Source of the DNA: a virus
Lineage: Duplodnaviria; Caudoviricetes
DNA length: 64,000 nt
IMG/VR virus record: IMGVR_UViG_3300032304_001448
Coordinates: 4,207 to 68,206 of that record
Reading direction: 5' to 3' (one strand)
The translations under genes and the position numbers were made by a program. The number at the start of each line of letters is the position of its first letter. Within the stretch, counting starts at the first letter, position 1. Under the pieces are notes generated by a model. That model saw only the letters and a program-made list of their open reading frames with translations, did no database searches and was not told the DNA's origin. Below, one piece after another: positions 16,058-38,423 of the stretch.

Positions 16058-19000
16058 ATGACTTCGGAGCAGCGTCGGCAAGAGAGTGAGGCTTACTGGT
16101 TTCGGTCGCCAGCCGCCCGCAACGTGCTGGAAGATTTCGGGGCAGCCCGTGATGACGAAGAGGAGACGATCATAACTGAGGAAGGTCAGGAGCCGGAGCC
16201 CGTGACCCTGACGCCGGAGACTAGTGTCGAAGACGTGGTCCGCAACGAACCCGAGCCGCCGCCCCGAGAATTTACCGATGTCTATGAGTTCTTCGCTTCG
16301 CAACAGGGCAAGGATTTAACCCAAGAGCGGTATGAAGAGCGGGGGATTGAGGGGTATGAAGTCGGGGAGTTGTTCCCGCGGGAGCAACGTGGGCTAGGTG
16401 GTGAAGCTGGGGCGGGATTTGCCCGTGGTGTCGACCAGACACAGGCGATGGGATTCGGGTTGCTCGGGCTCATGGGTGAGGCGTTGGGGGTCGAGGGGCT
16501 CTCGGACTTGGGGGTCGATGGCTACATCCGCAACATGGAAGAGGCGGCAAAGAACCAAGCCTCGGTGCAGGATCCTTTCGAGGAAATCGGCGGGGCAGGA
16601 GACGCGGCTCGCTACGCGACCGGAATCATTTTCGAACAGCTTCCTCAGTTGGCTCTCTCCCTGGTCGGCGGCGGCATAGGCGGATACACCGCGAGATCCC
16701 TTGCCAGCAAAGTCGTCGCCAATGAGATTGGCCGACGCATCAAGGCAGGCGCAGCCAAAGAGGTCGCCGAAAGTGAAGTGGCGCAAATGGTGGCTGAACG
16801 TATGCTGCGTGGGGCGGGAACCAAAATTGTCGAATCGGCGACGAAGTCCGGAGCTTTTGGCGGGGCCTATGTCGCCAACGTCGGGCAGATTGCGGGTGGT
16901 AGTTTTGGCGAGATCGAGCAGGAGACGGGTCTTCGTGATCCGGTCAACGCGCTCGGCTTTGCTCTTCTCGGCGGTGCGCTGGAGACGGGAGCCGAGGCCC
17001 TCCTCGCCGCGCCGATCGCTGGCAAACTGATGCGGGGCACAACAGCCCCGATGACTGGAGCCACGGAACGGGCATTAGGATTCAACGTCGGTCCGGTTGT
17101 TGGAGCAGCCGGTCGCTTGGCGGGAACCTCCGCCGCAGAAGGCGGAACGGAATACGGTCAGACTTTCACGGAACAAGCAGCGGTCGCATCGGCTGACCCC
17201 AATCGCACGCTGGCCGAAGTAGCGTTTACCCCGGAAGCCGAACGCGAGCGTCAGATTTCGGCAGCAGCAGGCGTCGTCGCTGGCGGCGGTATCGGTGCCG
17301 TGAGCCAAGCAGCAAGCTACTTGATTCCTGAAACAAGTCGCAGGGTTCAAGAGAAGTTGCAGCAAAGGCGAGGGGAGCAGGCTCCCGCTGATATCCCAGG
17401 AGATCCTAAAACCGGCCGGCCGTTGAAGGTCCTCGAAGGGAATTGGTCGGAGCCGAAGGTTGTTGGGGGTTTTGATTTTCGCCGTAATGACGAAGGCAAG
17501 GTCGCGATCTTTAACCCTGATCCGCAAAAGTTTGCTGGGTTGCCAAGATTCTCAACGCCGCAAGGCGATGTCTTCTCACTGCTTGATGGTGTCGAGTATC
17601 TCAATCTCCCGACCCGATCGGAAAAAGCTCTGGCACAGAAAGCCCTTGGGTTCTTCGATGACGATGAGGTCGGATCGACGCAGGTAAAACGCACCCCGGT
17701 CCAGAAACCCAAACCGCGCACCCCGGCCACGGAATCGGTGCTCGATGATGGTCCGGACATGACGCCGGCTGGTCAGGCGGTTGGTTCCAATGTGCGGTTC
17801 AATGGCTACGAGGGGTCACTGGCCCAGGATGGTGCGAGATTTTTGCTGCGGGCCAATGATGGCACGGAGGTCGAAGTTCCTGCGGAGAGTGAAGTCGAGA
17901 TCGTTGCGGCCCCTGCGCTGACTCGTCTAACTGCTACCTCGATCCCGGCAGTGCAGACTCCGCCGGTCGAACAACCGACACCGATGCCCGATCTCGCAAC
18001 GATGGGCGCGGAGGAAATTTCCAAAGCGGCACTGGCCCGTCCTGAAGTCTCGATCGTGGACCAAGCAGCGGAGACCGCTGAGACACTGGACCGCAATGCG
18101 GTGACCTTGCTGCGAGATGCGCGGACCACGCTGGAGAGTTCGATCGGGGAGATCGAGCGCCGGGACCTGGCACCGGAAGCCAAGAGCACGCTGACCGAGC
18201 CGCTGTATCAAAAGCTCGTTCAGGTCGAAGACACTTTAAGCAAAGCGCCGGCCGAGGCGACGGCACTCGATGCGGAGATTCAGAAGAGCAAGCAGACGAT
18301 CGCCGATACCAAAGTCGAGCAGGTCAAAGTCGCACAGCAAACGGTCAACCGTCCTCCGGATCAGTCGCGCCAATTTGTCGAGAGCCTGCAACCCAAGGAC
18401 AAGGTGACGGTCTACCTCTCGGACGAGAAAGCCGATGACTCGCTTTCGTTCGGTGCGACTTTCGAAGCCCGCCGTCCGAATGGCAACGTGGTCGTGGTGA
18501 CCGAGCCGGATGCCGAGGGCAACCAAGAGAAGCTCGTCTTTACCCCGCAGCAATACAACCGGCTCGGGATGTTCAAGCAGCCCACACCGAAGCAGTCACC
18601 AGTCGATGTTGCCGTTAATTCGGTGCTCGGACCGAAGCCGACCAAGGCGAAAGCCGAGCGCGTCTTTGGGACACCTTACCAAGAAGGTCAGCCGCAAGAG
18701 GCGTTCTTCGACGATGGTCTCTACGCCAACCCCGGCAAGACGAACAAGGTGCCGGGCGAGGTGCGCTACTTCGACAAGGAAGGTGAGCCTGGGGTCAAAG
18801 AGGTCGTAAACTTCGGCAAGTGGCAGGGCAACTCCCGGGGCACTCTCTTCACCACAGTGCGTCAGATGAACCTCGGACTCGATGTCCCGGTGCCGGATGA
18901 CCAGCTTCAGAATCTTCCCGAAGGTGTGCAAGTGGAGCAGCGCACGATGAAGAACGGTCAGACCGCCAACGTCGTGACTAAGGTCGTCTACAACGGCAAC

Positions 19001-22000
19001 ACCTATCGCCGCGGGGATGCTGCCTATGACTTTTCGGTGAACGGGGAGAACACCGGCCCGGGGGGTTTCGACAATATCTATTTCAACTCACCCGAGCGTT
19101 TGCTTCGCAGTGAGCGGGCTCGCAAGGGCAAGCAGACGCAGAAAGAGAAGGCGGGCAAAACTGTCGGCTCGGTGCAGGCAAAATTGGAAAGCCTCGACGA
19201 GGCCGACCAATTCTTTGTCGGCGATGCACGGGCACGGGCTGCACGGTTCATTGATCGCCGAAGCGACCTCGATCCCGAGGCCAAGGCGATGGCTTCCGAC
19301 GAAGCCGATGCCTCGATCATCGAACAGGTGGCCGGCCGCGATAAGAAGGGTGTGCCTCCGGTGCGCGATCTCGCGCTCTTCAAAAACTTCAACAGCCGGA
19401 TGCTCGATATCTTCGAGAGCAATCAGGAGAACGAGACGGGAGCCGATACCGGCCGCGATGTGCAGGAGGCAGCGCGTCAGATCACCGAGGAACTCGTGGC
19501 CTCGGGACAGACCGCAGCACAGGCATCGGCCGCGGTCGAGCCGATCGTGAAGCGTTGGCAGAGCTACGGAGATTTCAGTCCGATCAAGACGGCGATGACC
19601 AAGGCGCAGAGCGCCAAGAAATCGGCGGTCCGGACCGGACGTAACCAGCGGGCGGCAGAAGCCGATCTCGCCGCGGGGACGACCGGAGATGCGCGGGCCC
19701 AACAGACTCCGGCTGAGAGGTTTGCCGAGCGGACCAGCGATGCCGCGATGGACGGCCGGGAGCGTCTTGGCCGTGTTGTCGGTGAGGATCGCGACCTGCT
19801 TGATGCCTATTGGGCTGAAGAAGAATTGAGCGAAAGTGACCAGCAGCGTGTCGAAGATCTGCTAGAGTATATCCAAGGCAACAAGACTTATGAGCAAATC
19901 AACCAAGCAACCGAACAAGGTTCAGCAATACTTTCTAGAGAACCCAGAGATGGCGACAATCTTCGCCGGGATGCGGTTGCAGAAGGACGTGCCGGAGGAC
20001 TTGCGGAAAGCCGTGGGCGAGGACGCAATCAAGCGGGCGCTGGACGGGGACGTAACCGTGTGGGCCGAACTGATGGTGGCCAAGCCGGAACTGTTCCGGG
20101 AGCGGCCCCTGTCGCTGGTGGAAGACCTGGCTTGGGAGGAACTCCTGACCAACGGAACGCCAGCACCGCGAGGCGAGCCTTCGTCGGCTCCTTCATCGGC
20201 GACCGCGGTCTAGTTGCCGGCCTCTCCGAGGCAGTCGTCGAGAAGATCTACCAAGCAGTCTCGACCACCCTCGACGCTCTCGCCGCGACCAAGGGTCGCC
20301 GCGTTGTTGCCGCGACCGAGGCGAACATGGCCGACCTGATGGGTCGATCAGTTGAAGAACTCGTCGCCGGATACCAAGAGGAATTTTCCAGTTACATGGC
20401 CAACCGTGAGCGGATCGATGCGATCCGCCGCAATGCCCAAGAGGCCGTGCGTAGCCGGATCTTCGAAGGTCCGAAGGCCGCGCTTGAGTTCATGGCTCAA
20501 GATGGCGATCGACCGGCGTTCATGCGGATGGTTGCCAAGGTCGTCTTGAGCCAGGGTCAGCGGTTCGGTCTCAACATTGATGACATCGCGATGCAGGTCG
20601 GTATCTTCCGCCGCAACTTCGCGACCCAGCCTTTGCGCGGTGAAGAAGTGCGGGCTCGGGTGCAGGAAGTTCAAGGCGAGGAAGGTGAGGGTGTCTTCGA
20701 GGTGACCACTCCGGGTGGCGTGGAGACGTATGCTTTCGGCGGTGAGTCGGGGCGCACCCGCAAACAAGCCGGCAAAGAAGCCCGGGCACGGGCGTTCGAT
20801 CTTGTGACCGGACAGACGCGGACCTCTTGGGCCGGTGTGCTCGGAGTCGACGAGAACGCGACTTCGCCAGTCGGCCGCTACTCGGTCGTGCTCAACCTCG
20901 ATAACTGGCATGAGGCCGATGACATCGGGCTGACCATGTTGCACGAGATCGCCCATGTGTTCTCCAAAACAAAGTTCGCCGGACTGGAAAAACTCAACAC
21001 CGTCGAGAAGGCCGCGATCAAAGGAATCGAAGCCTTCCGTGTGCGAATGCTCAAGGCTGTCGCTCGGACCAATGGACTCGAAGTCCCCGCGGGTAATAAC
21101 CCCACAAACCTTGCCAAGTTGAGCCGTCAGGTCGATGACCTCTCCAACCCGAACGTGGTCGGAGCCGATGCCGATCGGCGCTTTGCCTATCTGGTTAATG
21201 CCGAGGAGACCGCCCGCGGGCTCATGGAGAGCCCGGAATTTCTCAAGCTCGCCCTGCAACTCGGGCTCGGTAAAGCCAAGACCAGGGGCAAGAAGACCTC
21301 GCTGTCCGGACCCGTGGCCGAGGCTTGGGGCGACATCGTCGATCTCAACTCTGGCAAAAAGACCGCGGCAACAAGCCCGCTGGCCAACGCTTTCCAAGAT
21401 GCGTGGGACGCAACCTTCGGTGCTCTCGAAGGCACGACCGAGGGCTATGCCAAACCTCCGATCGGAGCGAACCCCTTGGCCCAGGATCTCGCCGCCCTCG
21501 ACCAAGCAACCAATTTTATTGAAGACCAGATCATCGCCCGGGGATTGACTGGCACGACCGCAGAACGTGAAGCATTGCTGCAAGAGTTCATGGCTGCACG
21601 GAACATGGAACGGGGTGCAGAGGCAGTGGTCGAGGAAGCGGACGCCGATGTCGATACGCTGGCTGATCCGGTGACGATGAGTCGGGCAATTTCTAACGAA
21701 AGCCGCGAGGCTTTGTCTAACCAAGGAGCAACCAATGACAGAAGAAACCAACCTGCCTTACAAGCGACCACCCCAGGGATGGGATCCGCAAGTGGAGGCA
21801 ACCAAGTTCAAAGGCAAGCAGTTCGGCCCAACGCCGAGCCAAACCCCTTCGTCCAAGAAGGAGTCAGTGCCTACAATGCCCGTTACGGGCTCGGCGAAGT
21901 AGTCCGCGGGCACTACGCCCCAGTCGACGAACAACGTGCTCGCAGCATAGCTGCGGCTTATGACGCACTCCCGGTCCTCGATGAAGGTCGGGAGACCCAG

Positions 22001-25000
22001 GACGCCTACCGGCAACTGGGCTTCGAGATCCAGCAGCAGTGGGACTATGCCATCAATACGATGGGAGTCACCTTCGAGCCGTGGACAACCGAGGGGCAAC
22101 CTTACGCCAATTCCCGGGAGATGGTGCGCGATGTCCGGGACAACAAACACTTGTGGTTTTTCACGGGCGGTGAACCGCACCCGCTTCTCAACCAGCCCGA
22201 TGCCGACGGGCTGACGATGAATGACAAGCTGCGTGCGATCCACGATCTCTTCGGTCACGCAGCCGAGGACTACCAGTTCGGAGCCCGCGGCGAGGAGAAC
22301 GCCTGGATCAAGCACAGCCAGATGTTCACCCCGCTGGCCCAGAGGGCACTGACCACCGAGACCCGAGGGCAGAATTCATGGGTCAACTATGGGGCTCACA
22401 ACTACGCGGCTGACGGAACACGGATCAAGGTTCCTGCTTCCGAGCGTCCTTTTGCCACGCAGAAGGTGGCCCTTCTCCCCGAGGAGTTCATGGATTGGCG
22501 GGGTGCCTTGGCTGCGGACACTGTGACGGAGAGTCGGGCGGTGGCGATGGAGTTTGTCTCCCCTAATGAACGGGAGAATCTGACATTTGCACAGGCCCGG
22601 GCGGCGTTGACTGGAACGCAGCAAGAGCAACTCAGGGCGTTTGCCAGTAGGATTCATACGGTTTTCGGGCTAGATCAAAGCCGAGTCAGTGACGCTATCG
22701 GAGATTGGGCAGACGGCGCGGAGCCCACGACGGTAACCGAGCACTACGCTCCGGGACTGACGTATGAGGACGTAGAGGTAATGGCCGCGCTCAAGGGGGC
22801 ACTGAGAAACCAGAAGCAAGTAATTCCATTCCTGAGAGACTCAGAAGGCACTTCTAGACTTTATGATGTCTTTATCCCAAATCAGACGGCAGACCAATCC
22901 CGTGGTATTTTAGAGACAGCCGGGATCCAATTCCGGACTTTGATTGAACAAAACGGAGGGACTCGTGTCTTAATTTTTGATAAGAACGGCTCGCTCTTTT
23001 TGCCCGTCAGAGAGTTAGTCTCAAGTAATAACTATGAAACAAAATATTACAAAGGAACCGGCAACTTCCTCGGCAACGAAGATTCCCGTGAAGCCGGGCG
23101 AGCCGCTTACGCTCGAACAGTGGGATCGGCTATTGCAAGAAGCCGGTTGGCGGGACGCGACACTGGACGGCCCGACAGCGTTCGAGCTACCCGGCTATCC
23201 GAACTCGCAGCCGAAGCAGGACTGATTCTACCAAATGAAGACCTCAACGAAAGCCGCGCCGTCGGTGAAAGCCCGAATCTCATCTACCAAGATGCCGAAG
23301 GAAACCTTCGAGGACGACCGCGAACGGGAAGCCCTGAAGGGAACATCGGAAGGGCTTTACTACGCCTCCAAGAATCCTCCAACGAGGGCCGAGATTTTGG
23401 AGCAGGCGAGACGTTCCGGTTTCGTGCCGACACTGGCGGGCAAGCCGATCAGGCGCTAGAGCAACAGAGAAGGCAGCAAGCGGGCGCAGGGTTTCGCCGC
23501 TTCGTCGAGAACTTGGAGGCTGACGGCCTCGTCCTCGATCCGGAATCTTTCGAGAACACGGTCATCGAAGGGCGAGACCGTATTGGTGACGGGTCCGAGC
23601 ATCAGGTCCACATGGACCGCCCGACCAACCGCGTCATTAAATACACGAACCCGGATGTAACCGGCAGCGGCATCGTCGGGCAGTCGATCAATGTTTTTGA
23701 CTACCTCACGAATCTCAATGCCCACAAAAAACTTTTCAACATCGACATTCGCCTTGAGGGACTTGTCGATCTTGGGGAGCCCTTCCCACGAATCGTCACC
23801 TCGCAACCCTACATTAAGGGAAGAGATTCAACGATCCCCGAAATCAACAGTTACTTCCGCGATGAGTTAAAGTTCACGAAGCAGGACGATGGATCCTGGG
23901 TGCGCGTTCGTAATGGTGAGGTTCAACGTGTTTGGGATGTCGTTCCAGGAAACGTAAAGACCGTCAAGATCGGGAAAAAGAAAGTCGTGGTCCCATTCGA
24001 CGTTCAAATTTCCATACAGTCGAACGCAGCTAGTGGCGCGGTGGACCAACCGAACGAATCCCGAGCCCGCGGGCGAGTCTGGCGTCCGGTAACCAGTCGC
24101 ACTCCGACGGGCGGCACAATCAGCCGCGGCGGCATGTTCGCCGTCGATGAGCTTCTCGATAAGAGAGCCGGTGATCTCTACCGCTCAAGCCGGATGGCGA
24201 TCAAAGTCGATGTGTCGAAGATCCAAGACCTCTCCCGGGTGTTGGAGCGTCAGATTAAAAATTTCTACAAAGGTGAGACACCGCCCCTGGAGACGATCAA
24301 CACGGCGCTCGGTAACTTGGACAACCCGCTCACCGAGCAGCAGATCGGCGAGATTGAAGATTTGCGGGCTCGCGGGCTAACCAATCAAGCCGCCAAGAAG
24401 CGTGACCAATACATCCGCGACAACCGCCGCAACTTTAAGCAGAACAAACAGACGCAAGCCTTGGCCCAGTTGCCGGAAGAACTGGCCGAGACGATCCGCG
24501 AGATGTCTTCGCATATCGAGTCGCTTTCGCGTGAGTTGCCTAACGAAGGTTTGGTTAGTGGCGACTTGGCGATCACAGTTGATGAGGCGCTCGGCACCTA
24601 CCTTAACCGTAGCTATGCGATCTTCGATGATCCGCAGTGGACTGACCGTGTGCGAAAAGATGCCAAGGTCATGGACGCGGCCCGTAAGTATATCCGCAAC
24701 AGCTTGGCTAAAGCGAAAGCCCAAGACCTGATCGCTGATGCTGCCGACGAAGGCCGCACACTTTCCCGTATCGACGCCGAAGCACTCGCCAACGATTCAG
24801 TGATCGACGACGAGGTCGAGAACCTCCTCGAAGGCTATCTCGCGATCGGCGCAGAGGCCCCGACGATCGAAGTGCTCTCCGGCCGCATCCCCGGGCAGAA
24901 GAATCTCAGCATGTTCAACCAGCGCGGCAACATCGCGCCGGAGATCCAAGCCCTCTGGGGACGTTACGAAGACCCGAGCGTCAACTATGCCAAGACGGTG

Positions 25001-26980
25001 ATGAAGCTCTCCAGCGTCATCGCCAACGATAACTTCCTCAAGGAACTGCGGGACCTCGGTATCCAAGAGGGCTGGCTTTGGAGTCGTGAGAACAACCCCG
25101 ACGATACCCGTCACCCGCCCGGCTACGTCCGTATTTCAACCGAGAGAAATCCTTCACTGAGACCGCTCGGTGGGATGTATGTGCATCCGGATCTGGCCGA
25201 GGGGCTCTTCAAGATGTTCCCGGTCGGCTCGACCGAGGAGCACTACGCTTGGCTGCGTGCTTTGATGAAGCTGACCGGCATCTCGATGGCGACCAAAACG
25301 GTCGGATCGGTGGCGTCCCAGGTCCGGAACTTCTTCGGTAACTACATGCCGCTAATCGCAGGCGGGAACTTGGGGTTGGACGACATTACCAGCGGCGACT
25401 TTAAGCGCCGGTTCGCCAACTCTACCGACACTGTGCTGGCCAGCACCTTCGGGAAATATCGCAACATGAGCCGCGCCGAGTGGCGGGTGAAAATCGACGA
25501 CTATATCCGCCGCGGTATTGTCGGCGAGTCGATCACGACGGGACTCCTCGAAGATCTCCTCACCGCGAGCCGCCGCGCCGGGAGCCCTGACTTCGGGGAC
25601 TTCGTTTGGAATAAGGTCGGGGATCCTTTCAAGCGGGTGGCCGACTTCGCGGTCAAGACCTACTCGGCCGGTGACGACTGGTTCAAGGTGATGATCTACG
25701 AGGCCGAGCAGGACAAATACCGGAGAGCCTTTCCTGACTGGGACGACAACAAGATCAAAGAAAAGGCCGCAGTCATCGCCCGGGACATCCACTGGACCTA
25801 CTCACTGGCCCCGGCCATCGTGCAGGACCTCAAGAAGTTCCCCTTCGTTGCCCCGTTCGTGACTTTCACGAGCGAAGTCATCCGCACCACTTACAATCTG
25901 CAAAAGCTGGCCCGCCAGGAGATCACAGAAGGCCGAGCCACGGGCAACAAAGAACTCGAAGCGATCGGCTGGAAGCGCGTGCGCGGTATGACCATTGCCG
26001 CCTTCCTCCCGTTTGCCGTCGGCTCCGCCGCTATGGCGATGGCGGGCATTTCCGGAGAAGACGAAGAAGACCTCCGTCGCTTCCTGCCCGACTGGCAGAA
26101 GAACAGTCAGCTTGTCCTCTTCCGCAAAGCAAACGGCGAGATCGACTTTCTCGATGTCAGCTTCTTGGACCCCTACGAGTATTTCAAAAAGCCTTTGACC
26201 GCATTCATGCGTTCAATGCGCAGCCCCGGTAGTGCTGACGAGATCCTCCTCAAGGGCACGATGGACATGGTGCGCCAAGCCATCGATCCCTTTACCAGCG
26301 AGCAGATCTTCGCCGGAGCAATCATGGACGTGATGCGTAACCGCGATGCAGCCGGACGCCAGGTCTACAACCCGCAGGACAGTGGAGCGAACATCGGTCT
26401 CAATGTAGCCCGCAAGATCTTCTACGATCCTTTCGTCCCCGGCACCGTGAACAGCGCCGAGCGTATCGGTAAAGCCGCCTTCGGTATCGAGAGCGAGACC
26501 GGACGTTCCTACAACCTCATCAACGAGCTTTCCAGTGTCGCACTCGGCCAGCGTGTCTCCTCGGTCGACGCGCAGCAGGCACTCCAGTTCAAATCTTCCC
26601 GCTTCATGCGCGAGATGCGCGATGCCTCGGCCCTCTTCAACCGCGAGTTCACCGCCCAAGGCACCCGCTCGGCCGGCGATGTGATCGACGGCTATGCTCG
26701 GTCCAACGCCGCCCGGCGCAGCCTGATCGACTCAATCCGCAGGGACTACCTCGCCGCGATCCGTCTCGGGGTGCCCGTGCAGCGGGCCAAGGCGATCCTC
26801 CGTGACGGAGGTCTCGGCGGCGACACCATCAAGATGGTGACCACCGGAATCTACAAACCCTACGACGCGAGCAAGCAGAGCATAGACTTGGTTCGGTCCC
26901 GCGGTAAAAACGACCGCGTCTCCGCCTACAACCAAGCCCGCCGCTCGGCCGTGCCCCGCGAAATCCTTGCCGATCGATGA
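16058..26980 (+). CDS. giant internal virion polyvalent protein (zincin HExxH domain, HDxxGH domain, PolyVal-type kinase, LPD-like helical C-terminus)
   Basis: 3640 aa; MLHEIAHV at ~20942; LRAIHDLFGH...GARGEENAW at ~22241; GDGSEHQV...VIKY...IVTSQPYIKG...DVVPGNV...PFD at ~23580-24010. Confidence 0.8.
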   Translation: MTSEQRRQESEAYWFRSPAARNVLEDFGAARDDEEETIITEEGQEPEPVTLTPETSVEDVVRNEPEPPPREFTDVYEFFASQQGKDLTQERYEERGIEGYEVGELFPREQRGLGGEAGAGFARGVDQTQAMGFGLLGLMGEALGVEGLSDLGVDGYIRNMEEAAKNQASVQDPFEEIGGAGDAARYATGIIFEQLPQLALSLVGGGIGGYTARSLASKVVANEIGRRIKAGAAKEVAESEVAQMVAERMLRGAGTKIVESATKSGAFGGAYVANVGQIAGGSFGEIEQETGLRDPVNALGFALLGGALETGAEALLAAPIAGKLMRGTTAPMTGATERALGFNVGPVVGAAGRLAGTSAAEGGTEYGQTFTEQAAVASADPNRTLAEVAFTPEAERERQISAAAGVVAGGGIGAVSQAASYLIPETSRRVQEKLQQRRGEQAPADIPGDPKTGRPLKVLEGNWSEPKVVGGFDFRRNDEGKVAIFNPDPQKFAGLPRFSTPQGDVFSLLDGVEYLNLPTRSEKALAQKALGFFDDDEVGSTQVKRTPVQKPKPRTPATESVLDDGPDMTPAGQAVGSNVRFNGYEGSLAQDGARFLLRANDGTEVEVPAESEVEIVAAPALTRLTATSIPAVQTPPVEQPTPMPDLATMGAEEISKAALARPEVSIVDQAAETAETLDRNAVTLLRDARTTLESSIGEIERRDLAPEAKSTLTEPLYQKLVQVEDTLSKAPAEATALDAEIQKSKQTIADTKVEQVKVAQQTVNRPPDQSRQFVESLQPKDKVTVYLSDEKADDSLSFGATFEARRPNGNVVVVTEPDAEGNQEKLVFTPQQYNRLGMFKQPTPKQSPVDVAVNSVLGPKPTKAKAERVFGTPYQEGQPQEAFFDDGLYANPGKTNKVPGEVRYFDKEGEPGVKEVVNFGKWQGNSRGTLFTTVRQMNLGLDVPVPDDQLQNLPEGVQVEQRTMKNGQTANVVTKVVYNGNTYRRGDAAYDFSVNGENTGPGGFDNIYFNSPERLLRSERARKGKQTQKEKAGKTVGSVQAKLESLDEADQFFVGDARARAARFIDRRSDLDPEAKAMASDEADASIIEQVAGRDKKGVPPVRDLALFKNFNSRMLDIFESNQENETGADTGRDVQEAARQITEELVASGQTAAQASAAVEPIVKRWQSYGDFSPIKTAMTKAQSAKKSAVRTGRNQRAAEADLAAGTTGDARAQQTPAERFAERTSDAAMDGRERLGRVVGEDRDLLDAYWAEEELSESDQQRVEDLLEYIQGNKTYEQINQATEQGSAILSREPRDGDNLRRDAVAEGRAGGLAESRGRGRNQAGAGRGRNRVGRTDGGQAGTVPGAAPVAGGRPGLGGTPDQRNASTARRAFVGSFIGDRGLVAGLSEAVVEKIYQAVSTTLDALAATKGRRVVAATEANMADLMGRSVEELVAGYQEEFSSYMANRERIDAIRRNAQEAVRSRIFEGPKAALEFMAQDGDRPAFMRMVAKVVLSQGQRFGLNIDDIAMQVGIFRRNFATQPLRGEEVRARVQEVQGEEGEGVFEVTTPGGVETYAFGGESGRTRKQAGKEARARAFDLVTGQTRTSWAGVLGVDENATSPVGRYSVVLNLDNWHEADDIGLTMLHEIAHVFSKTKFAGLEKLNTVEKAAIKGIEAFRVRMLKAVARTNGLEVPAGNNPTNLAKLSRQVDDLSNPNVVGADADRRFAYLVNAEETARGLMESPEFLKLALQLGLGKAKTRGKKTSLSGPVAEAWGDIVDLNSGKKTAATSPLANAFQDAWDATFGALEGTTEGYAKPPIGANPLAQDLAALDQATNFIEDQIIARGLTGTTAEREALLQEFMAARNMERGAEAVVEEADADVDTLADPVTMSRAISNESREALSNQGATNDRRNQPALQATTPGMGSASGGNQVQRQAVRPNAEPNPFVQEGVSAYNARYGLGEVVRGHYAPVDEQRARSIAAAYDALPVLDEGRETQDAYRQLGFEIQQQWDYAINTMGVTFEPWTTEGQPYANSREMVRDVRDNKHLWFFTGGEPHPLLNQPDADGLTMNDKLRAIHDLFGHAAEDYQFGARGEENAWIKHSQMFTPLAQRALTTETRGQNSWVNYGAHNYAADGTRIKVPASERPFATQKVALLPEEFMDWRGALAADTVTESRAVAMEFVSPNERENLTFAQARAALTGTQQEQLRAFASRIHTVFGLDQSRVSDAIGDWADGAEPTTVTEHYAPGLTYEDVEVMAALKGALRNQKQVIPFLRDSEGTSRLYDVFIPNQTADQSRGILETAGIQFRTLIEQNGGTRVLIFDKNGSLFLPVRELVSSNNYETKYYKGTGNFLGNEDSREAGRAAYARTVGSAIARSRLAGRDTGRPDSVRATRLSELAAEAGLILPNEDLNESRAVGESPNLIYQDAEGNLRGRPRTGSPEGNIGRALLRLQESSNEGRDFGAGETFRFRADTGGQADQALEQQRRQQAGAGFRRFVENLEADGLVLDPESFENTVIEGRDRIGDGSEHQVHMDRPTNRVIKYTNPDVTGSGIVGQSINVFDYLTNLNAHKKLFNIDIRLEGLVDLGEPFPRIVTSQPYIKGRDSTIPEINSYFRDELKFTKQDDGSWVRVRNGEVQRVWDVVPGNVKTVKIGKKKVVVPFDVQISIQSNAASGAVDQPNESRARGRVWRPVTSRTPTGGTISRGGMFAVDELLDKRAGDLYRSSRMAIKVDVSKIQDLSRVLERQIKNFYKGETPPLETINTALGNLDNPLTEQQIGEIEDLRARGLTNQAAKKRDQYIRDNRRNFKQNKQTQALAQLPEELAETIREMSSHIESLSRELPNEGLVSGDLAITVDEALGTYLNRSYAIFDDPQWTDRVRKDAKVMDAARKYIRNSLAKAKAQDLIADAADEGRTLSRIDAEALANDSVIDDEVENLLEGYLAIGAEAPTIEVLSGRIPGQKNLSMFNQRGNIAPEIQALWGRYEDPSVNYAKTVMKLSSVIANDNFLKELRDLGIQEGWLWSRENNPDDTRHPPGYVRISTERNPSLRPLGGMYVHPDLAEGLFKMFPVGSTEEHYAWLRALMKLTGISMATKTVGSVASQVRNFFGNYMPLIAGGNLGLDDITSGDFKRRFANSTDTVLASTFGKYRNMSRAEWRVKIDDYIRRGIVGESITTGLLEDLLTASRRAGSPDFGDFVWNKVGDPFKRVADFAVKTYSAGDDWFKVMIYEAEQDKYRRAFPDWDDNKIKEKAAVIARDIHWTYSLAPAIVQDLKKFPFVAPFVTFTSEVIRTTYNLQKLARQEITEGRATGNKELEAIGWKRVRGMTIAAFLPFAVGSAAMAMAGISGEDEEDLRRFLPDWQKNSQLVLFRKANGEIDFLDVSFLDPYEYFKKPLTAFMRSMRSPGSADEILLKGTMDMVRQAIDPFTSEQIFAGAIMDVMRNRDAAGRQVYNPQDSGANIGLNVARKIFYDPFVPGTVNSAERIGKAAFGIESETGRSYNLINELSSVALGQRVSSVDAQQALQFKSSRFMREMRDASALFNREFTAQGTRSAGDVIDGYARSNAARRSLIDSIRRDYLAAIRLGVPVQRAKAILRDGGLGGDTIKMVTTGIYKPYDASKQSIDLVRSRGKNDRVSAYNQARRSAVPREILADR
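19890..20213 (+). CDS. nested +1-frame ORF inside giant gene (107 aa)
   Basis: Globular-looking sequence (QQYFLENPEMATIFAGMRLQ...WAELMVAKPELF) where host frame turns R/G-rich; TGcTAGAGT extended -10-like at 19860. Confidence 0.55.
   Translation: MSKSTKQPNKVQQYFLENPEMATIFAGMRLQKDVPEDLRKAVGEDAIKRALDGDVTVWAELMVAKPELFRERPLSLVEDLAWEELLTNGTPAPRGEPSSAPSSATAV
21735..21902 (+). CDS. nested +1-frame ORF inside giant gene (55 aa, MTEETNLPYKRPPQGWDPQVEATKFKGKQFG...)
   Basis: Preceded by AAGGAG (21723-21728); host frame low-complexity here. Confidence 0.5.
   Translation: MTEETNLPYKRPPQGWDPQVEATKFKGKQFGPTPSQTPSSKKESVPTMPVTGSAK
23034..23225 (+). CDS. nested +1-frame ORF inside giant gene (63 aa)
   Basis: Immediately preceded by the phage GTAATAAC motif (23025); LTLEQWDRLLQEAGW helix. 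Confidence 0.45.
   Translation: MKQNITKEPATSSATKIPVKPGEPLTLEQWDRLLQEAGWRDATLDGPTAFELPGYPNSQPKQD
23235..23459 (+). CDS. nested +1-frame ORF upstream of kinase domain (74 aa; alternative start 23292)
   Basis: PPTRAEILEQARRSGF helix; host frame R/G/Q-rich over same span. Confidence 0.45.
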   Translation: MKTSTKAAPSVKARISSTKMPKETFEDDREREALKGTSEGLYYASKNPPTRAEILEQARRSGFVPTLAGKPIRR

Positions 26981-32824: not shown

Positions 32825-33502
32825 CTAAGAGGCCAGCACATCCTCTTCGGCCTCTTCGCGGGTCTCGAAGGGGCCGTTGGCCTCGCCGTCCGGGAGGCAT
32901 CCCGGTTGGCAGGACCACCAGTAGAAACCGGCGAGTTCCTTCGCGGCCTCTTCGGTAGCCGGGTCGACTTCGGCTTGGTCGTAGTCCCCGGTGAGCGTGT
33001 CTTTGACTGACTCGGCGAGTCGGGCAGAAAGCCAAGTCTCCTCGCCGGCTTCAAGAAACTCGTCAGCCGTTACCTCGAAGATCTCGATTCCGGCGAGTTT
33101 TTTCGCCCGGTGCTTCTCTTGCCACTCCTCGAAGACATCCTCGGCATGGTCGTTATACCATTCGTGGACTTGCTCTTGGATGTAGCTGTAAATCGCAGCG
33201 GGTTTCCACCCGAGTGGCCAGTCCTTATCGTCTTTGCTGTCGAAGCCGGCGTTGTCGAACGCCTCTTCTACTTCTGATCCGTGGAGGTAGAAGATGTCCC
33301 GGATCTCGTTGTTGTAGATCGGCACCGAGCCGTCGACGATCTCGTGAATAGTCCCCGAGTAGTCGAGGTCGTTGCCGAGATCGGGCAGCTTGTCCGGTTC
33401 GTTGTCGTCGCAGTAGCGAAGGAGTTCGTCTTTCACGTCCTCGATCGTGCTGTCGACGCGGTCTTGCAGGGTGTCTTCGATTTCGATGGTTCTTTTGCTC
33501 AT
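32825..33502 (-). CDS. Ocr-like acidic DNA-mimic (anti-restriction) protein with C-terminal extension
   Basis: Very acidic; IHEIVDGSVPIY and AAIYSYIQEQVHEWYNDHAEDVFEEW align by eye with T7 Ocr IHMAADNAVPHY and [22 protein letters not shown]. Confidence 0.55.
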   Translation of the reverse strand: MSKRTIEIEDTLQDRVDSTIEDVKDELLRYCDDNEPDKLPDLGNDLDYSGTIHEIVDGSVPIYNNEIRDIFYLHGSEVEEAFDNAGFDSKDDKDWPLGWKPAAIYSYIQEQVHEWYNDHAEDVFEEWQEKHRAKKLAGIEIFEVTADEFLEAGEETWLSARLAESVKDTLTGDYDQAEVDPATEEAAKELAGFYWWSCQPGCLPDGEANGPFETREEAEEDVLAS

Positions 33503-33531
33503 GGTATTTATGGTTTCTTTTTGTGGTGTTA

Positions 33532-33711
33532 TTACTCACCATCAATTTCGATGGGGAGGGTGAGTTGCGGGTCGGCTTGCTCTTTCCGGGCAAGCTGAAC
33601 GAGGTGAGCGTGACGCATGACGACCGATGTCAGGTGCAGTGCTGCGTCGATGTCGTAGTCATGGGTCGCATTGAATTGCGCGGCGGTGTCGAGGATTAGG
33701 TTGGTTTTCAT
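33532..33711 (-). CDS. small hypothetical early protein (59 aa)
   Basis: ATG just downstream of motif copy 33723; MKTNLILD... Confidence 0.55.
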   Translation of the reverse strand: MKTNLILDTAAQFNATHDYDIDAALHLTSVVMRHAHLVQLARKEQADPQLTLPIEIDGE

Positions 33712-33739
33712 AGTTCACTTCTAAGAGGCCAGCACTTAG

Positions 33740-34168
33740 TCAGAGATACCGGCAGAGGGCATACTCGGCCTCGGTTTTATCGGTAGTGGTAAAAAGGATC
33801 TCGTCGCTCGGTGCCGGTGTTGTGGTTAGCCAGATCCCCTCTTCGTCACTGATGATGTAATGGTTGGTTGTGCCGGTGTTACGTATTGGTTTAGTTATAC
33901 GTGGTGAAGCCACCGCCCGATCGATGTCGGCTAATTGTATTTCGGGAAACAATGTCTCTTCTTCCAGGGTAATCCGGACAATCTCGTCCGCCGGGACATT
34001 GAAGCCCCATCCAGTGTTCCAGCGAATCCGAGGCGACTTCGGGTTATGCTCGCCCCGGTAAGGGACGACGACACCATATTCGTGACGCTCCCCAAGGATG
34101 TTTTTACTCGGCCGGGTAATGCAACGCACCCGGTCGCCGATATTGAATTTGATGAGGTTCTTTTTCAT
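33740..34168 (-). CDS. hypothetical early protein, SH3/KOW-like N-terminus
   Basis: FNIGDRV..; start downstream of motif copy 34182. Confidence 0.6.
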   Translation of the reverse strand: MKKNLIKFNIGDRVRCITRPSKNILGERHEYGVVVPYRGEHNPKSPRIRWNTGWGFNVPADEIVRITLEEETLFPEIQLADIDRAVASPRITKPIRNTGTTNHYIISDEEGIWLTTTPAPSDEILFTTTDKTEAEYALCRYL

Positions 34169-34179
34169 AGTCTTCACTA

Positions 34180-34365
34180 TTAAGAGGCCAGCACTTGATG
34201 ATAGTCCCCTTCCGGAATCCCGGCCCACTCAGCGAGCAGGGGATCACCGAAAAACAGTTCGGGGTTTGATTGCGCGAGGTCTTGAAGCTCGACGATCTCA
34301 GCATAGGAAATGTATTCCTCTTCAATCGCCTCACGTAGTTCCTGAAGTCGGGTTGCGGGGTTCAC
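34180..34365 (-). CDS. small acidic hypothetical protein
   Basis: ISYAEIVELQ...L.EWAGIPE; ends VLAS in motif. Confidence 0.6.
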   Translation of the reverse strand: MNPATRLQELREAIEEEYISYAEIVELQDLAQSNPELFFGDPLLAEWAGIPEGDYHQVLAS

Positions 34366-34673
34366 GGTTTCAGTTTGGCGAGGAGCGCCCGGGCGCGGGT
34401 GATCTCCCCGAGTTCGGAGTCTTTGACACTGCCGGTTGATTTGAGGAGCCGGTCGTCGAGACGTTCGAGGGCGGCAACGCACTCGCGCAGGGACGCGACG
34501 AGTTCTTTATGCTCTTCGAGGATTGCCGGCAAAAGTTCCTCCGCTTCACGGACCAGTTCGATCGCATCATCGATCGGGTCGGGATGATCTTCGTTGGCCT
34601 CCGAATCGAAGAGCGCGACAGCGCCTTCTACCGTGATCCGGAGTTCGTCTAATATGGGTGTTGGTTTGTTCAT
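34362..34673 (-). CDS. hypothetical early protein
   Basis: Helical, ends ARALLAKL. Confidence 0.65.
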   Translation of the reverse strand: MNKPTPILDELRITVEGAVALFDSEANEDHPDPIDDAIELVREAEELLPAILEEHKELVASLRECVAALERLDDRLLKSTGSVKDSELGEITRARALLAKLKP

Positions 34674-34690
34674 GGTTCCTTTCGTTTGGG

Positions 34691-35230
34691 TTAAAGAAGT
34701 TCTCCCTTCTCGTTGAATTCGTAGTCATTGATCTCGCAGTGCTCGGCGAAGTTCTCGTCTTCGTATTGCCCCTCGGCTTCGTTTTGCGCGTCTTCGAGCC
34801 ATGACCGGAAACCGGCTTCGAGGAGTGTTTTGAGGTCAGTCTCCCCGGCGAAGAAGGCTATGCGGAAGCCATCGAGCGCGGACTCATCGGCGCAGTAGCC
34901 GGTCAGCTTGCACTCGCCGGTCCCGCGCAACGTCTCAGGATCATAGGCCCCGAGTTTCTCCAGCCGGGCGGCGATCTCTTCGCGGGTTAACTCGGGAAGT
35001 TCTTCAACTTGTTTACCGATAAAGTTGGCCCAGCTATGCGAGCCCCCGAAGAAGTCGATCGAGTAGTCATGCAGCTTGGCCTCGAAGGCATTGGCGAAGA
35101 CTTGCAGGACGGCCAAGTATTCATCGTCAGACGAAAATCCGACATCGGCTTTGTAATCATACTTCGCCTTCTCTTTGGCGGAGGGACTGAGTTCGTTGAA
35201 TTGGTAGGCTGTCGCTAAGTATTGTCTCAT
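34691..35230 (-). CDS. acidic early protein of a family common in phage early/anti-restriction regions
   Basis: Y.F.ELS..AKEKA N-term, LTGYC.D, N.YEF.E.G C-term. Confidence 0.7.
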   Translation of the reverse strand: MRQYLATAYQFNELSPSAKEKAKYDYKADVGFSSDDEYLAVLQVFANAFEAKLHDYSIDFFGGSHSWANFIGKQVEELPELTREEIAARLEKLGAYDPETLRGTGECKLTGYCADESALDGFRIAFFAGETDLKTLLEAGFRSWLEDAQNEAEGQYEDENFAEHCEINDYEFNEKGELL

Positions 35231-35277
35231 GGGTGTGTTTCGTTTGGGTTAGGTGTTCGTAATTAAGAGGCCAGCAC

Positions 35278-35367
35278 TCAGGTCGGGATGATCCAGTCGA
35301 CGAGTTGCATGAAGACAAGGAGCAGGGAGAGGCCGGCGATGAGGTGATCGAGGGTTGGGTTTTTCAT
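35278..35367 (-). CDS. small membrane peptide
   Basis: MKNPTLDHLIAGLSLLLVFMQLVDWIIPT; ATGA overlap, GGAGG SD. Confidence 0.45.
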   Translation of the reverse strand: MKNPTLDHLIAGLSLLLVFMQLVDWIIPT

Positions 35368-35657
35368 TCGGCACCTCCTTCGGCCTTGGCGATTGCTGCG
35401 CGGATTTGCGCGGCCAACTCTTCGGGAGCATCCCCGCCAGCCCAATATCCATCGACCGCTTCTAATGCCGCGAGTAGGTCGGGCGCGGCGGCGATGAGAT
35501 GCGTGTTCGCTGTCCACTCTTTCAGAGGTATGCGGTCAGACGTGCAGCGTTCGGTGGATCGTTCCGAGTCGACGGTTGCAACGTCCAAGCCGTCACCGTT
35601 GCGGATGTTTTGCCCTTCGTAAAACCAAGGGCCGGGAGTGTGTTGGTTGTTGCTCAT
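35364..35657 (-). CDS. HTPGPW...ANxxLIAAAPDLL family phage protein (paralog 2)
   Basis: Signature motifs present. Confidence 0.75.
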   Translation of the reverse strand: MSNNQHTPGPWFYEGQNIRNGDGLDVATVDSERSTERCTSDRIPLKEWTANTHLIAAAPDLLAALEAVDGYWAGGDAPEELAAQIRAAIAKAEGGAE

Positions 35658-35974
35658 TCGGCACCTCCCACTTTGGCGATCGCGGATTTAGCCCGTTCGA
35701 GCCATGATGGGTCGCCGTCATCTCCCCAACTTCCAACCACTTCGATCGCCTCTTCGAGCGCATCGAGGAGGTCGGGGGCGGCGGCGATGAGTCGGGCGTT
35801 GGCAACGCCACCGTCATCCTCGGCAACGTATTGCCCAGATCCCCGGGGGAATGCGTTGCTTGGGACATTGTGCGCGTGCACGTTCGGGACGATCGTCCGG
35901 CCTTGCAGGTCAGTGATTTGCCCCTCGGAGTTCACGGTCCAAGGGCCGGGAGTGTGTTGGGTGTATTTGTTCAT
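35654..35974 (-). CDS. HTPGPW...ANARLIAAAPDLL family phage protein (paralog 1)
   Basis: Signature motifs; start MNKYTQ downstream of motif copy 35981. Confidence 0.75.
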   Translation of the reverse strand: MNKYTQHTPGPWTVNSEGQITDLQGRTIVPNVHAHNVPSNAFPRGSGQYVAEDDGGVANARLIAAAPDLLDALEEAIEVVGSWGDDGDPSWLERAKSAIAKVGGAE

Positions 35975-36009
35975 CGAATTAAGAGGCCAGCAGTGTGGTG
36001 TTATTACGT

Positions 36010-36519
36010 TTAGTGAAGAAGTTCCCCGGCATACCCGGAGAAGTATTTGCCCCGGGCGCATCCGAGGAGGTCGGCATAGTTGTGGAAATCGAATTGGTTT
36101 CCGTGATCCCGGATATACTCCACCCGGTCGCGGTCGCTGTAGCAGTCGCACCACACTCGTTGGGCGGTCTCGTCTTCGAGTTCCGAGAAGTCGTCTTCGT
36201 CGACGACCGGGTAGTCTTCGAGCTTATCGGCGATCTCTTTCGCCTTCTCATGCTCCGGGGACCCGGCGCGGACCGACAACGATTCCCACCATCCGCAGGC
36301 CCAATGGCCAAACCGGTCGATGGATACGTTGTCACTCTCGCCGCCGAGTTCCCGGAGCGCCGAACGAAAGTTGCTCTCGGTCAGGCAATCCGAGTCCCGG
36401 GACTGGGTGAGTAGGCAAAGCCACTCAGGTTCCGGAATCGCGCCGGCATAGTTGTCGAGCGAGTCCCAACCACTCGGGTTGGAGACGATTTCTTTCAGAG
36501 GAGTAAGGTAGTTGGTCAT
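36010..36519 (-). CDS. acidic hypothetical early protein
   Basis: RDSD.L.ESNF, FGHWACGW.E, LEDYPVVDE motifs. Confidence 0.7.
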   Translation of the reverse strand: MTNYLTPLKEIVSNPSGWDSLDNYAGAIPEPEWLCLLTQSRDSDCLTESNFRSALRELGGESDNVSIDRFGHWACGWWESLSVRAGSPEHEKAKEIADKLEDYPVVDEDDFSELEDETAQRVWCDCYSDRDRVEYIRDHGNQFDFHNYADLLGCARGKYFSGYAGELLH

Positions 36520-36591
36520 GAGTTTTGTGGTGTTATGCGGTTACGGAGTTAATACTGTCAAGATTAAGAGGCCAGCATTGCGAGAGGGAGG

Positions 36592-36789
36592 TCAGATGGC
36601 ATCGCGGAGAAACTTGCCACTCCAGTGCATACGATCTTCAACGTCCCACATTCCGGGACCAACACGGACAGGTGTGTAGATATACCAGCCAGTGTGCGAG
36701 TCGCAGATTCTTGCGTTGCGCCCGTATTTGGCTTCGATCTTTTTTGCATAGCGGCGGGACTCGTTGATGCGCTGTAGTTTGATATTCAT
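36592..36789 (-). CDS. hypothetical early protein
   Basis: Start downstream of motif copy 36800. Confidence 0.55.
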   Translation of the reverse strand: MNIKLQRINESRRYAKKIEAKYGRNARICDSHTGWYIYTPVRVGPGMWDVEDRMHWSGKFLRDAI

Positions 36790-36797
36790 GTTCAATA

Positions 36798-37190
36798 TTA
36801 AGAGGCCAGCACTTCGTCGGAGGTCTCAGCGTGATAGTGCTCTAAGGCCCAGTCCAGATGGAACCGGACCTGCTCCTCGCCGAACAAATGCAAGGCATCC
36901 GTGAGCAAATCGATGAACGCTTCCCGGGCATCTTCGCCGGGCGTGTAGTCCAAGATCACTCGGGCCACTTTCCTCGTGCGTTTGATTCTCTGGTCCTTGG
37001 TTAGGATGTCCGGGTCGACCAGTTCGTATTCGATCCATCTGTCTTTAACCGCTTCAAACCAGTCGTTTTTGTCATAGGCTTGCCAGTCGTCGGACCGGTC
37101 ACGGTTTATCTCTTCAAGGATCTGGTCCAGTGTCCACTCCTCGATCTGCCCGGTCGGGATATATCTGAGCTTGTATGTTTCAAGGTTCAT
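36798..37190 (-). CDS. hypothetical early protein
   Basis: WTL..ILEEINRDRSD.W..YD..DW; DLLTD.LH; ends VLAS in motif. Confidence 0.65.
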   Translation of the reverse strand: MNLETYKLRYIPTGQIEEWTLDQILEEINRDRSDDWQAYDKNDWFEAVKDRWIEYELVDPDILTKDQRIKRTRKVARVILDYTPGEDAREAFIDLLTDALHLFGEEQVRFHLDWALEHYHAETSDEVLAS

Positions 37191-37200
37191 GGTGCGTGAT

Positions 37201-37419
37201 TCAGGCTGCGGTTCTCGGATCAAATCCAAGTTCGTCAATGATCCGGATGCGGTCTTCGTCGTGTAAATTGTCGAGATCGAGGTATTCGACGAGCCAATCA
37301 GTTTGATTCGGCGTTTGTTCGATGATCCAATCAGCCCAAAATTCGGGTTCATTGGTGATGTCGTAAATGAGTTGCCGTCTCACGAGGCTGGATATTTTGT
37401 CTTGCTGTTCAGGTGTCAT
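37201..37419 (-). CDS. acidic hypothetical early protein
   Basis: MTPEQQ start after A/C leader. Confidence 0.6.
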   Translation of the reverse strand: MTPEQQDKISSLVRRQLIYDITNEPEFWADWIIEQTPNQTDWLVEYLDLDNLHDEDRIRIIDELGFDPRTAA

Positions 37420-37466
37420 GGTAGTTTTAGGTTGGAGGTTTAAGTTCACTATTAAGAGGCCAGCAC

Positions 37467-37694
37467 TCAGCGCGGCCAGCGGTCCACCGCCGCCTGAAAG
37501 CGTTCGTTGCTCACTCGGGCACCGTTCGGGTGCACCGCTTGAATGGTGCGTCCCCGGGCAGTGATCCGGACGAATCGACTCGGCTTGTCGCCGGGATAGC
37601 ACCGGACCCATTGCCCGGTCTGCAACCGGAGTTGTCCATTGTAGAGCGCCACAAGGACACTGTTCGAAAGTAGGAGTGTAGGTAGGTATTTCAT
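37467..37694 (-). CDS. hypothetical early protein
   Basis: GQLRLQ.GQWV...PSRFV motif. Confidence 0.6.
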   Translation of the reverse strand: MKYLPTLLLSNSVLVALYNGQLRLQTGQWVRCYPGDKPSRFVRITARGRTIQAVHPNGARVSNERFQAAVDRWPR

Positions 37695-37698
37695 GGGA

Positions 37699-38007
37699 TT
37701 ACTTGTGGTCGCTTTCGAGGAGATCCCATCCGCCCGAGTTACGGAACCGGCGCGAGATCCAGTGAATGTGCGATGCGAGATCATAGGTGAGAAACTCGTA
37801 AGGCCGGTCGTCGAGATCCTGCACGGCACTCAAAGGGATCCCGGCGAGGATGAGATCCTTGGCGATCTCGTCGATGATGTTGTCGGGTAGCTTGATCGGT
37901 CCGTCTTCAGGGTAGTTGTCGCCGTGGTTGCGGAAAACCTCCGCCGCCGCCCGGGCCAACTTGGATTTGCTTCCAGTTTCTTTGATCGCTTTACCGTATT
38001 TGTTCAT
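37699..38007 (-). CDS. hypothetical early protein
   Basis: ORF with AACCATG start context. Confidence 0.6.
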   Translation of the reverse strand: MNKYGKAIKETGSKSKLARAAAEVFRNHGDNYPEDGPIKLPDNIIDEIAKDLILAGIPLSAVQDLDDRPYEFLTYDLASHIHWISRRFRNSGGWDLLESDHK

Positions 38008-38015
38008 GGTTTCGA

Positions 38016-38201
38016 TTAATGTTGGTTGAAGGTGAAGGTTTCGGATTGCTCACGGACGAAGCTGAAATCCCATCCGCATCCCCGGCACCGGAGGTGAATC
38101 CGGTTGCCAAGTTGCCCGAGGATCTGAGCGTCCGCGCTGTCGCACACCGGGCAATAAGCCGGGTCAGTGTCTTGTTCGTATTGGAGTGTTTCGATGTTCA
38201 T
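38016..38201 (-). CDS. small zinc-ribbon protein
   Basis: CPVC...LGQLG....RCRGCG. Confidence 0.65.
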   Translation of the reverse strand: MNIETLQYEQDTDPAYCPVCDSADAQILGQLGNRIHLRCRGCGWDFSFVREQSETFTFNQH

Positions 38202-38210
38202 GGTTCGTAA

Positions 38211-38396: not shown

Positions 38397-38423
38397 GGTT
38401 CGTAATTAAGAGGCCAGCAGGGT

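Follow-up and report, generated by a model that had tools for sequence, protein, structure and literature searches.

Probable small genes nested in the +1 frame of a giant virion-protein gene of a Caudoviricetes phage

Introduction

Phage genes that lie within a longer gene, in its +1 frame, are already known, e.g., Rz1 within Rz of phage lambda (PMC6139136); nesting in linkers of the kind reported here is, to our knowledge, undescribed. We have analyzed a stretch of phage DNA of 64,000 nucleotides (nt), called the window in the following, which corresponds to positions 4,207 to 68,206 of the IMG/VR record IMGVR_UViG_3300032304_001448 (Duplodnaviria; Caudoviricetes). The source record is a virus of 68,206 bp with direct terminal repeats and is estimated to be complete, and the window covers most of it. 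In the window a giant gene codes for a protein of 3640 amino acids (aa), and four open reading frames (ORF1 to ORF4) lie in its +1 frame. An initial annotation, made from the DNA sequence alone, had taken these ORFs for antidote genes built into the gene of a toxic protein. From the comparisons reported below we conclude that ORF1, ORF3 and ORF4 are probably real and selectively maintained small-protein genes within a giant virion-protein gene, their translation being predicted, and that ORF2 may be a fourth such gene.

The closest analogy appears to be the spacer of the hepatitis B virus polymerase, which is encoded over preS/S. In PMC8227390, codon usage serves as a criterion for the ancestral frame of an overlap, and the spacer is explained by a model in which the linker frame was born over a small gene located between two genes and in this way joined them. 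The likeness is twofold: a disordered linker of a multi-domain protein is encoded over a small gene in another frame, and the small gene is proposed to have been situated between formerly separate genes, the nested frame having a genome-like codon usage. In contrast to hepatitis B virus, the present case is a 68-kb double-stranded DNA phage whose genome need not be compressed, one host gene would contain three or four separate nested genes, and the nested products look like soluble small proteins and not like envelope proteins.

The spanin pair Rz/Rz1 resembles the arrangement in the window: a shorter gene lies completely within a longer one on the same strand, in the +1 frame and with an initiation of its own (which is predicted here), and the segment of the host protein that is overlapped is a less structured one. 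In the window, however, none of the four nested peptides contains a cysteine and hence none a lipobox, and the locus is not a lysis cassette.

In polymorphic toxin–immunity pairs and in type II toxin–antitoxin pairs a small ORF is found beside a variable enzymatic domain and cassettes are exchanged. Our locus is similar: its small ORFs directly adjoin variable domains of enzymatic appearance, and they take part in cassette exchange. The differences are that here the small ORFs overlap the large ORF instead of following it, that no toxin family is recognisable, and that members of the ORF1 family are found without the neighbouring domain. For phages and conjugative elements, polyvalent proteins have reportedly been described by Iyer and colleagues, and the giant protein shares with these its conserved ends and a variable series of enzymatic-looking cargo domains. 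A Pfam search found no domain in the giant protein, and its membership is by architecture only. Full-text literature searches gave no report of genes nested in the genes of polyvalent or giant virion proteins.

Results

Four ORFs in the +1 frame of the giant gene

The giant gene, the four nested ORFs and the motif downstream of ORF1 are located as follows (window coordinates):

16058..26980, + strand: giant gene, main frame, 3640 aa
19890..20213, + strand: ORF1, +1 frame, 107 aa, acidic (isoelectric point, pI, 4.8), all-helical, conserved small-protein family
21735..21902, + strand: ORF2, +1 frame, 55 aa, rich in P, T, S and K, doubtful
23034..23225, + strand: ORF3, +1 frame, 63 aa, acidic (pI 4.9), conserved core around WDRLL..EAGWRDATLDGPTAFELP
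23235..23459, + strand: ORF4, same frame as ORF3, 74 aa, basic (pI 10.2), starting 9 nt past the stop codon of ORF3
20942..20956, + strand: HExxH motif, main frame, residue 1629, downstream of ORF1, invariant in 6/6 homologues

As had been annotated, all four ORFs start with ATG and are in the +1 frame of the giant gene (offsets 3832, 5677, 6976 and 7177, each leaving a remainder of 1), and the main frame indeed turns into a low-complexity linker over the four spans, where the fraction of G, R, A and S is 0.56, 0.40, 0.52 and 0.43 vs 0.34 in the whole protein. The giant gene has a GC content of 60%, with 0.648/0.455/0.677 at the three codon positions; the value of the third position drops to 0.435–0.533 in the main frame of the nested spans. 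The further claim that the +1 frame looks globular applies to ORF1, for which a confident fold model was obtained, and does not apply to the P/T/S/K-rich peptide of ORF2.

There are only 92 stop codons in the 3640 codons of the +1 frame. For a comparison with chance, 1000 synonymous-codon shuffles of the gene were used. The giant gene contains 12–13 ATG-started +1 ORFs of at least 55 aa, the longest of which (137 aa, at 21135) is not among the four that had been flagged. For minimal lengths of 55, 63, 74 and 107 aa we count 13, 10, 8 and 3 such ORFs, compared with 11.2 (± 2.2), 9.5, 7.6 and 3.8 in the shuffled sequences. The length of the nested ORFs by itself is within the chance expectation, and open frames alone therefore carry no meaning here.

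The difference in codon-usage log-odds between the +1 and the main frame is +0.155 for ORF1, +0.074 for ORF3, +0.070 for ORF2 and +0.028 for ORF4; among the 14 alternative-frame ATG-started ORFs of at least 50 aa only these four score above zero, the other ten ranging from -0.34 to -0.71. A blind scan with 180 windows of 60 codons, using a log-odds model trained on twelve other genes, found the +1 frame better than the main frame in nine windows, all of which are within 19898–20197 or 23018–23497. When the scan was trained on each gene's own main frame, the ORF1 and ORF3/ORF4 segments were flagged in the window and in its close relative L001, and only the ORF1 segment in the relatives L006, L008, L013 and L014.

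We rejected a pure-chance origin for ORF1, ORF3 and ORF4. The view that these three are protein-coding and do not represent out-of-frame noise is supported by homologues, conservation, codon usage and fold. No paralogues of the four nested peptides were found elsewhere in the window.

ORF1 and its homologues

A HMMER pass with ORF1 over 1.84 billion protein representatives gave 12 homologues with E ≤ 1e-3, each 83–153 aa long, the best match having an E value of 1.3e-37 and another one 41% identity at 7.5e-9. The family alignment contains the invariant columns PEL.R..ED.A..L, and the N-termini follow a conserved pattern M-K/S-x-S-T. Scanning IMG/VR with this alignment we obtained 10 loci, one of which is the contig of L001. 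In 9/9 of the remaining, distant loci the ORF1 homologue (40–46% identity) is found in the +1 frame of an open run of 2884–3412 aa, about 3.9 kb into the giant gene. The homologues begin with an ATG 1–20 codons past a +1 stop codon, and in most cases AGGAG or AGGA is present 8–9 nt upstream. The initial annotation had named homologous giant genes as the place where stop codons would break a spurious +1 frame; for ORF1 this frame is open with a conserved ATG in all nine of the distant giant genes.

The giant proteins of the distant loci share residues ~650–1856 and 2668–3640 with the window protein, which places ORF1 in the conserved backbone, upstream of the region that contains the invariant HExxH. 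In the centre of the giant gene only the run of ORF1 was matched in all 9 loci by alternative-frame BLAST. In the conserved C-terminal third of the gene such matches are abundant, and therefore alternative-frame BLAST matches alone are no evidence.

Over ORF1 the GC content by main-frame codon position is 0.759/0.648/0.435, which is the usual pattern shifted by one base. In the block 17429–21687 L001 and the window are identical in ~95% of the nucleotides, and the 226 substitutions are distributed as 36/29/161 over main-frame positions 1/2/3. The three substitutions within ORF1 are all at main position 1, which is the wobble position of the +1 frame, and they lead to no change in the +1 peptide and to three changes in the main frame; in 225-nt control windows, on the other hand, nearly every substitution alters the +1 frame and few alter the main frame (e.g., 19 vs 2). 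Of the pairs formed by six diverse sequences, 13/15 show fewer differences in the +1 peptide than in the main-frame peptide, the other two being about equal. A similar comparison could be made with metagenome contigs from four sequencing runs, which are probably DNA: +1 third positions hold 6/8 of the differences in ORF1 and main-frame third positions hold 7/8 of the differences in 20214–21687, both counts being made among the 40 listed of 510. The possibility that the +1 frame is a by-product of DNA conservation was rejected for ORF1, where the main frame is less well conserved than the +1 peptide.

The AlphaFold2 model of ORF1, built with a 13-row alignment, consists of seven helices with a mean predicted local distance difference test score (pLDDT) of 77.9 and ~90 over residues 20–80. 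A fold search of the PDB with this model gave no match (best E value 5.5). No ORF1 homologue was found in a scan of prokaryote genomes, and a metagenome scan gave 4 short loci.

The ORF1 domain is also found where no giant ORF covers it:

L017:2076-4379 and L016:382-2298, 47%-GC contigs: ORF1-family domain fused to or downstream of Sel1-repeat proteins

On one 47%-GC contig the domain is in frame inside a 767-aa Sel1-repeat ORF (Pfam E value 2.8e-63) and there is no giant ORF over the domain. An N6 DNA methylase adjoins on this contig, together with a bPH-domain protein, and the HExxH region is absent from the locus. On another contig the domain lies downstream of a Sel1 gene, again with no giant ORF across it. 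These loci may represent a cellular or defence-island context for the ORF1 domain.

ORF3 and ORF4

For ORF3 all 10 candidates reached E ≤ 0.01 and count as homologue clusters (59–75% identity, 18 invariant columns). Proteins of this family are called as genes for 60–65 aa on other contigs, one of which has a length of 386 kb. The constraint on ORF3 is known at the protein level only; scans of IMG/VR and of genomes found no locus, and in L001, where the whole preceding cassette differs, ORF3 is absent. The same linker of L001 contains a different protein-like +1 ORF of 51 aa (L001:10082-10237), and the codon scan flags this segment as better in the +1 than in the main frame. In the window the cassette upstream of ORF3 has a GC content of ~0.47–0.50 and a flattened codon-position pattern over 22640–23000, which suggests that it was acquired recently.

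With ORF4, 11 of 13 candidates reached E ≤ 0.01, and besides its own there are 10 homologue clusters with 57–88% identity and 34 invariant columns; the N- and C-terminal extensions of the homologues vary. Although L001 differs by 52 substitutions over 222 nt, its ORF4 is open and has kept both the start and the stop codon, while the +2 frame gains 4 stop codons. The +1 wobble position holds 23/52 of these substitutions and 9/14 of the last ones (23369–23456). The AlphaFold2 model shows three helices and a hairpin (pLDDT 69), and a PDB fold search with it found no match (best E value 8.6). IMG/VR scans with ORF4 gave the L001 contig only, and a tblastn search of GenBank phages had no match for ORF1, ORF3 or ORF4.

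ORF2

The following hexamer precedes ORF2:

21723..21728, + strand: AAGGAG, 6 nt before the ATG of ORF2, encoding part of the main-frame LSNQG motif; spacing kept in L002

The Shine–Dalgarno sequence which had been proposed for ORF2 is thus present. ORF2 and the spacing of AAGGAG, 6 nt and ATG are kept in L001, L002 and L003, and the giant genes of L002 and L003 otherwise share only the cassette of ORF2 with the window. Compared with L001, three of the five substitutions fall on the +1 wobble position, and the codon ranking groups ORF2 with the three supported ORFs. It is possible, if doubtful, that ORF2 is a real nested gene. We rather incline to the view that ORF2 is a chance open frame over a compositionally odd linker and not a gene: ORF2 has no database homologue, its own cluster included, its peptide is rich in P, T, S and K, and the 60-codon scan did not flag it. 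In comparison with L002 the main frame is better conserved in this region (39/75 vs 21/51), the AAGGAG is accounted for by the conserved LSNQG motif of the main frame, and the probability that the main frame over ORF2 is stop-free by chance is 0.11.

Start signals and the gene-junction motif

The motif upstream of ORF3 and its further copies in the window are:

23025..23032, + strand: GTAATAAC, recurrent gene-junction motif, ending 1 nt before the ATG of ORF3
11365, 21093, 23025, 58017 and 61718, + strand: copies of GTAATAAC
29891, 32518, 33535, 36007, 44164, 49104, 50192 and 52389, - strand: copies of GTAATAAC

ORF1 had been credited with a signal of its own, and TGCTAGAGT is indeed present at 19860; a promoter scan, however, called no promoter there, its yield over 19500–23700 being 1 site (at 20580) vs 0.9 expected. 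For ORF3 the phage motif GTAATAAC was confirmed. The 13 copies in the window compare with 0.43 expected, and they are mostly located 0–25 nt before gene starts. Often the motif includes the TAA of the upstream gene, and an extended consensus can be written approximately as aaGTAATAAC(a/g)cc(a/g)(c/t)a. Candidate roles are a translation signal, an RNA-binding site or a promoter element. The copy at 21093 within the giant gene has no supported ORF behind it. A +1 stop codon is found 3–8 codons ahead of the ATG of ORF1, ORF3 and ORF4 in the window and 1 codon ahead in L006–L012.

Cassettes of the giant protein

A map against L006–L014 shows that the conserved parts of the giant protein are the N-terminal part, residues ~650–1856 and the C-terminal residues 2668–3640, and that the middle (~1860–2667) is made up of variable cassettes. 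The motif ESR[AE] occurs in the main frame at residues 1881, 2158, 2398 and 2667:

21698..21709, + strand: ESRE, residue 1881, marking where the first variable cassette begins or ends; 21687 is the site of the L001 insertion and of contig breakpoints
22529..22540, + strand: ESRA, residue 2158, cassette border
23249..23260, + strand: ESRA, residue 2398, cassette border lying within the 5′ end of ORF4
24056..24067, + strand: ESRA, residue 2667, start of the conserved C-terminal block

At 21687 L001 carries an extra cassette of 563 nt (L001:8288-8851), which lies between two ESR[AE] motifs. Several metagenome contigs diverge at 21687 and at 22570, and one contig joins 21687 to 23270 via 874 other letters which replace 21688–23269. 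From the exchanges in L001 and in this contig it follows that ORF4 moves together with the domain downstream of it, and ORF3 with the domain upstream. The ESR[AE] motifs may mark recombination joints; alternatively they may be cut by a protease, perhaps by the giant protein's own HExxH domain.

The C-terminus of the giant protein matches PHROG 22602, annotated as virion structural protein, with an E value of 1.5e-32, and residues 1926–2113 match PHROG 3170, a family without an assigned function. NCBIfam and Pfam searches with the segments adjoining the nested ORFs gave no match for any of them, and a PDB sequence search with the giant protein gave 0 matches. Among GenBank phages the giant gene has no DNA match as a whole; three short matches to 'lysin' at 70–72% were found for window 22241–22393.

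Discussion

Origin of the nested arrangement

The following sequence of events would account for the arrangement. The small genes would have been there first, and neighbouring cargo genes would have been fused into a polyprotein-like ORF when the small genes were read through in another frame, which would make the linkers the overprinted, younger frame. That the nested frames came first is suggested by the genome-like codon usage of the +1 frame, which the linkers do not have. Two further observations point in the same direction: the ORF1 domain is part of a Sel1-repeat ORF that no giant ORF covers, and the junction motif GTAATAAC abuts the start of ORF3. In the present-day gene, ribosomes on the giant-gene mRNA would also initiate internally at ATG 19890 and at ATG 23034, and translation from ATG 23235, 9 nt past the stop codon of ORF3, would be coupled to that of ORF3. 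The predicted outcome is that free proteins of 107, 63 and 74 aa are made alongside the giant protein. These small proteins would have functions of their own and need not be antidotes of the neighbouring domains.

Back-translating the nested peptides with genome codon usage (20,000 trials) left the main frame stop-free in 1.5% of the trials for ORF1, 11% for ORF3 and 2.5% for ORF4. In every relative the main frame over the nested spans is open, its product being poorly conserved there. The main frame is kept open by selection over these spans, and constraint on both frames is found for ORF1 and ORF4. What the main frame encodes there is a G/R/A/S-rich linker between cassettes, with the properties expected of a linker.

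Several observations weigh against this reading. Most matches to the ORF1 family come from contigs of 1–5 kb. In L016–L018 the frame equivalent to that of the giant gene is open for 118–168 codons (168 in L017) with similar short motifs, and these loci may go back to a fragment of a giant gene and not to an ancestor of their own. Likewise some of the ORF3 and ORF4 database homologues may themselves lie in the +1 frame of related giant genes that are present only as fragments. The two frames of ORF4 differ from L001 almost equally (24/74 vs 26/73). In the window the Shine–Dalgarno sequences are weak for ORF1 (AAGG, 11 nt) and ORF4 (AGGA, 13 nt). Finally, searches of the four nested peptides against Pfam, PHROGs and NCBIfam yielded no function, the sole match being a 13-bit hit to DUF6538 below the cutoff, and an Atlas search with scores of up to 0.82 yielded no function either.

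Alternative explanations

The antidote idea of the initial annotation supposes that each nested protein silences the adjacent effector domain in the producing cell; the protein could also chaperone the domain for packaging, so that the two form a built-in toxin–immunity or effector–chaperone pair. In favour of such pairs the nested ORFs are placed at cassette borders, and ORF4 is kept with its downstream domain when the upstream cassette is swapped, as is seen both in L001 and in the metagenome contig. In L001 ORF3 has been lost together with the upstream domain and another +1 ORF is in its place, and the ORF1 homologue precedes the conserved HExxH region in 9/9 loci. There is also a precedent in lambda, where the product of the embedded +1 gene Rz1 partners the product of its host gene Rz (PMC6139136). 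Of the adjoining effector domains that had been named, however, only the HExxH motif at residue 1629 could be substantiated; none of the adjoining domains has a match in Pfam or NCBIfam, and none is recognisable as a toxin. The ORF1 domain is also fused to Sel1 repeats beside the N6 methylase in a locus without the HExxH region. The ORF3-family proteins of 60–65 aa called elsewhere, among them the one on the 386-kb contig, may speak against an obligatory pairing as well, and self-protection seems of doubtful value for a lytic late gene whose host is already doomed. We consider the antidote or chaperone role unlikely. The related proposal that the cassettes carry a dedicated inhibitor or chaperone gene in the linker, domain and partner sharing nucleotides and being exchanged as one unit, is in our opinion quite unlikely.

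One could also imagine that the +1 sequences are untranslated relics of swallowed small genes and that their conservation reflects shared ancestry or a constraint on the nucleotides, e.g., at recombination joints. Cassette exchange clearly happens at these borders, and the weak start-site signals of ORF1 and ORF4 would fit this explanation. Decay would, however, have brought stop codons into ORF1, which is open with a conserved ATG in 9/9 loci at 40–46% identity; its substitutions cluster at the +1 wobble position and the main frame is less conserved than its peptide, and ORF4 has remained open through 52 substitutions while the +2 frame acquired its 4 stop codons. We regard untranslated relics as very unlikely. 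Alternative C-termini derived from frameshifting are common in phage structural genes, and the +1 segments might accordingly be reached by ribosomal frameshifting, giving truncated isoforms of the giant protein. The +1 stop codon 1–20 codons ahead of the conserved ATG leaves almost no room for a shift, and the conserved M-K/S-x-S-T N-termini speak against such isoforms, so that frameshifting appears extremely improbable.

Implications

Gene finders always pass over an ORF that lies inside a long gene, and as a result three conserved families are invisible in phage annotation. If the three ORFs are indeed genes, the comparative evidence, which reaches down to ~40% identity, would mean that a single gene of a double-stranded DNA phage retains several dual-coding stretches although compression is not obviously required. 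The arrangement also suggests that polyvalent virion proteins are built by reading through small genes between neighbours, which has previously been proposed mainly for the hepatitis B spacer. Should the nested proteins turn out to be partners of their neighbouring domains, effector and regulator would be linked in a manner that is new.

Further observations

The longest alternative-frame ORF in the giant gene is an antisense ORF of 467 aa (window 20348–21751, - strand), which has no Pfam match. Its frame has few stop codons across the whole giant gene (39 stop-free runs), and this ORF looks like an artefact of the GC composition.

In the early region the motif GCTGGCCTCTT, which encodes LAS, occurs in 13 copies, all on the minus strand, within window 32837–39465. 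Several ORF3-family database proteins carry an N-terminal extension reading LASYKE. Judged from the peptides only, these extensions would fit a GCTGGCCTCTT-like motif upstream of the ORF3 homologues.

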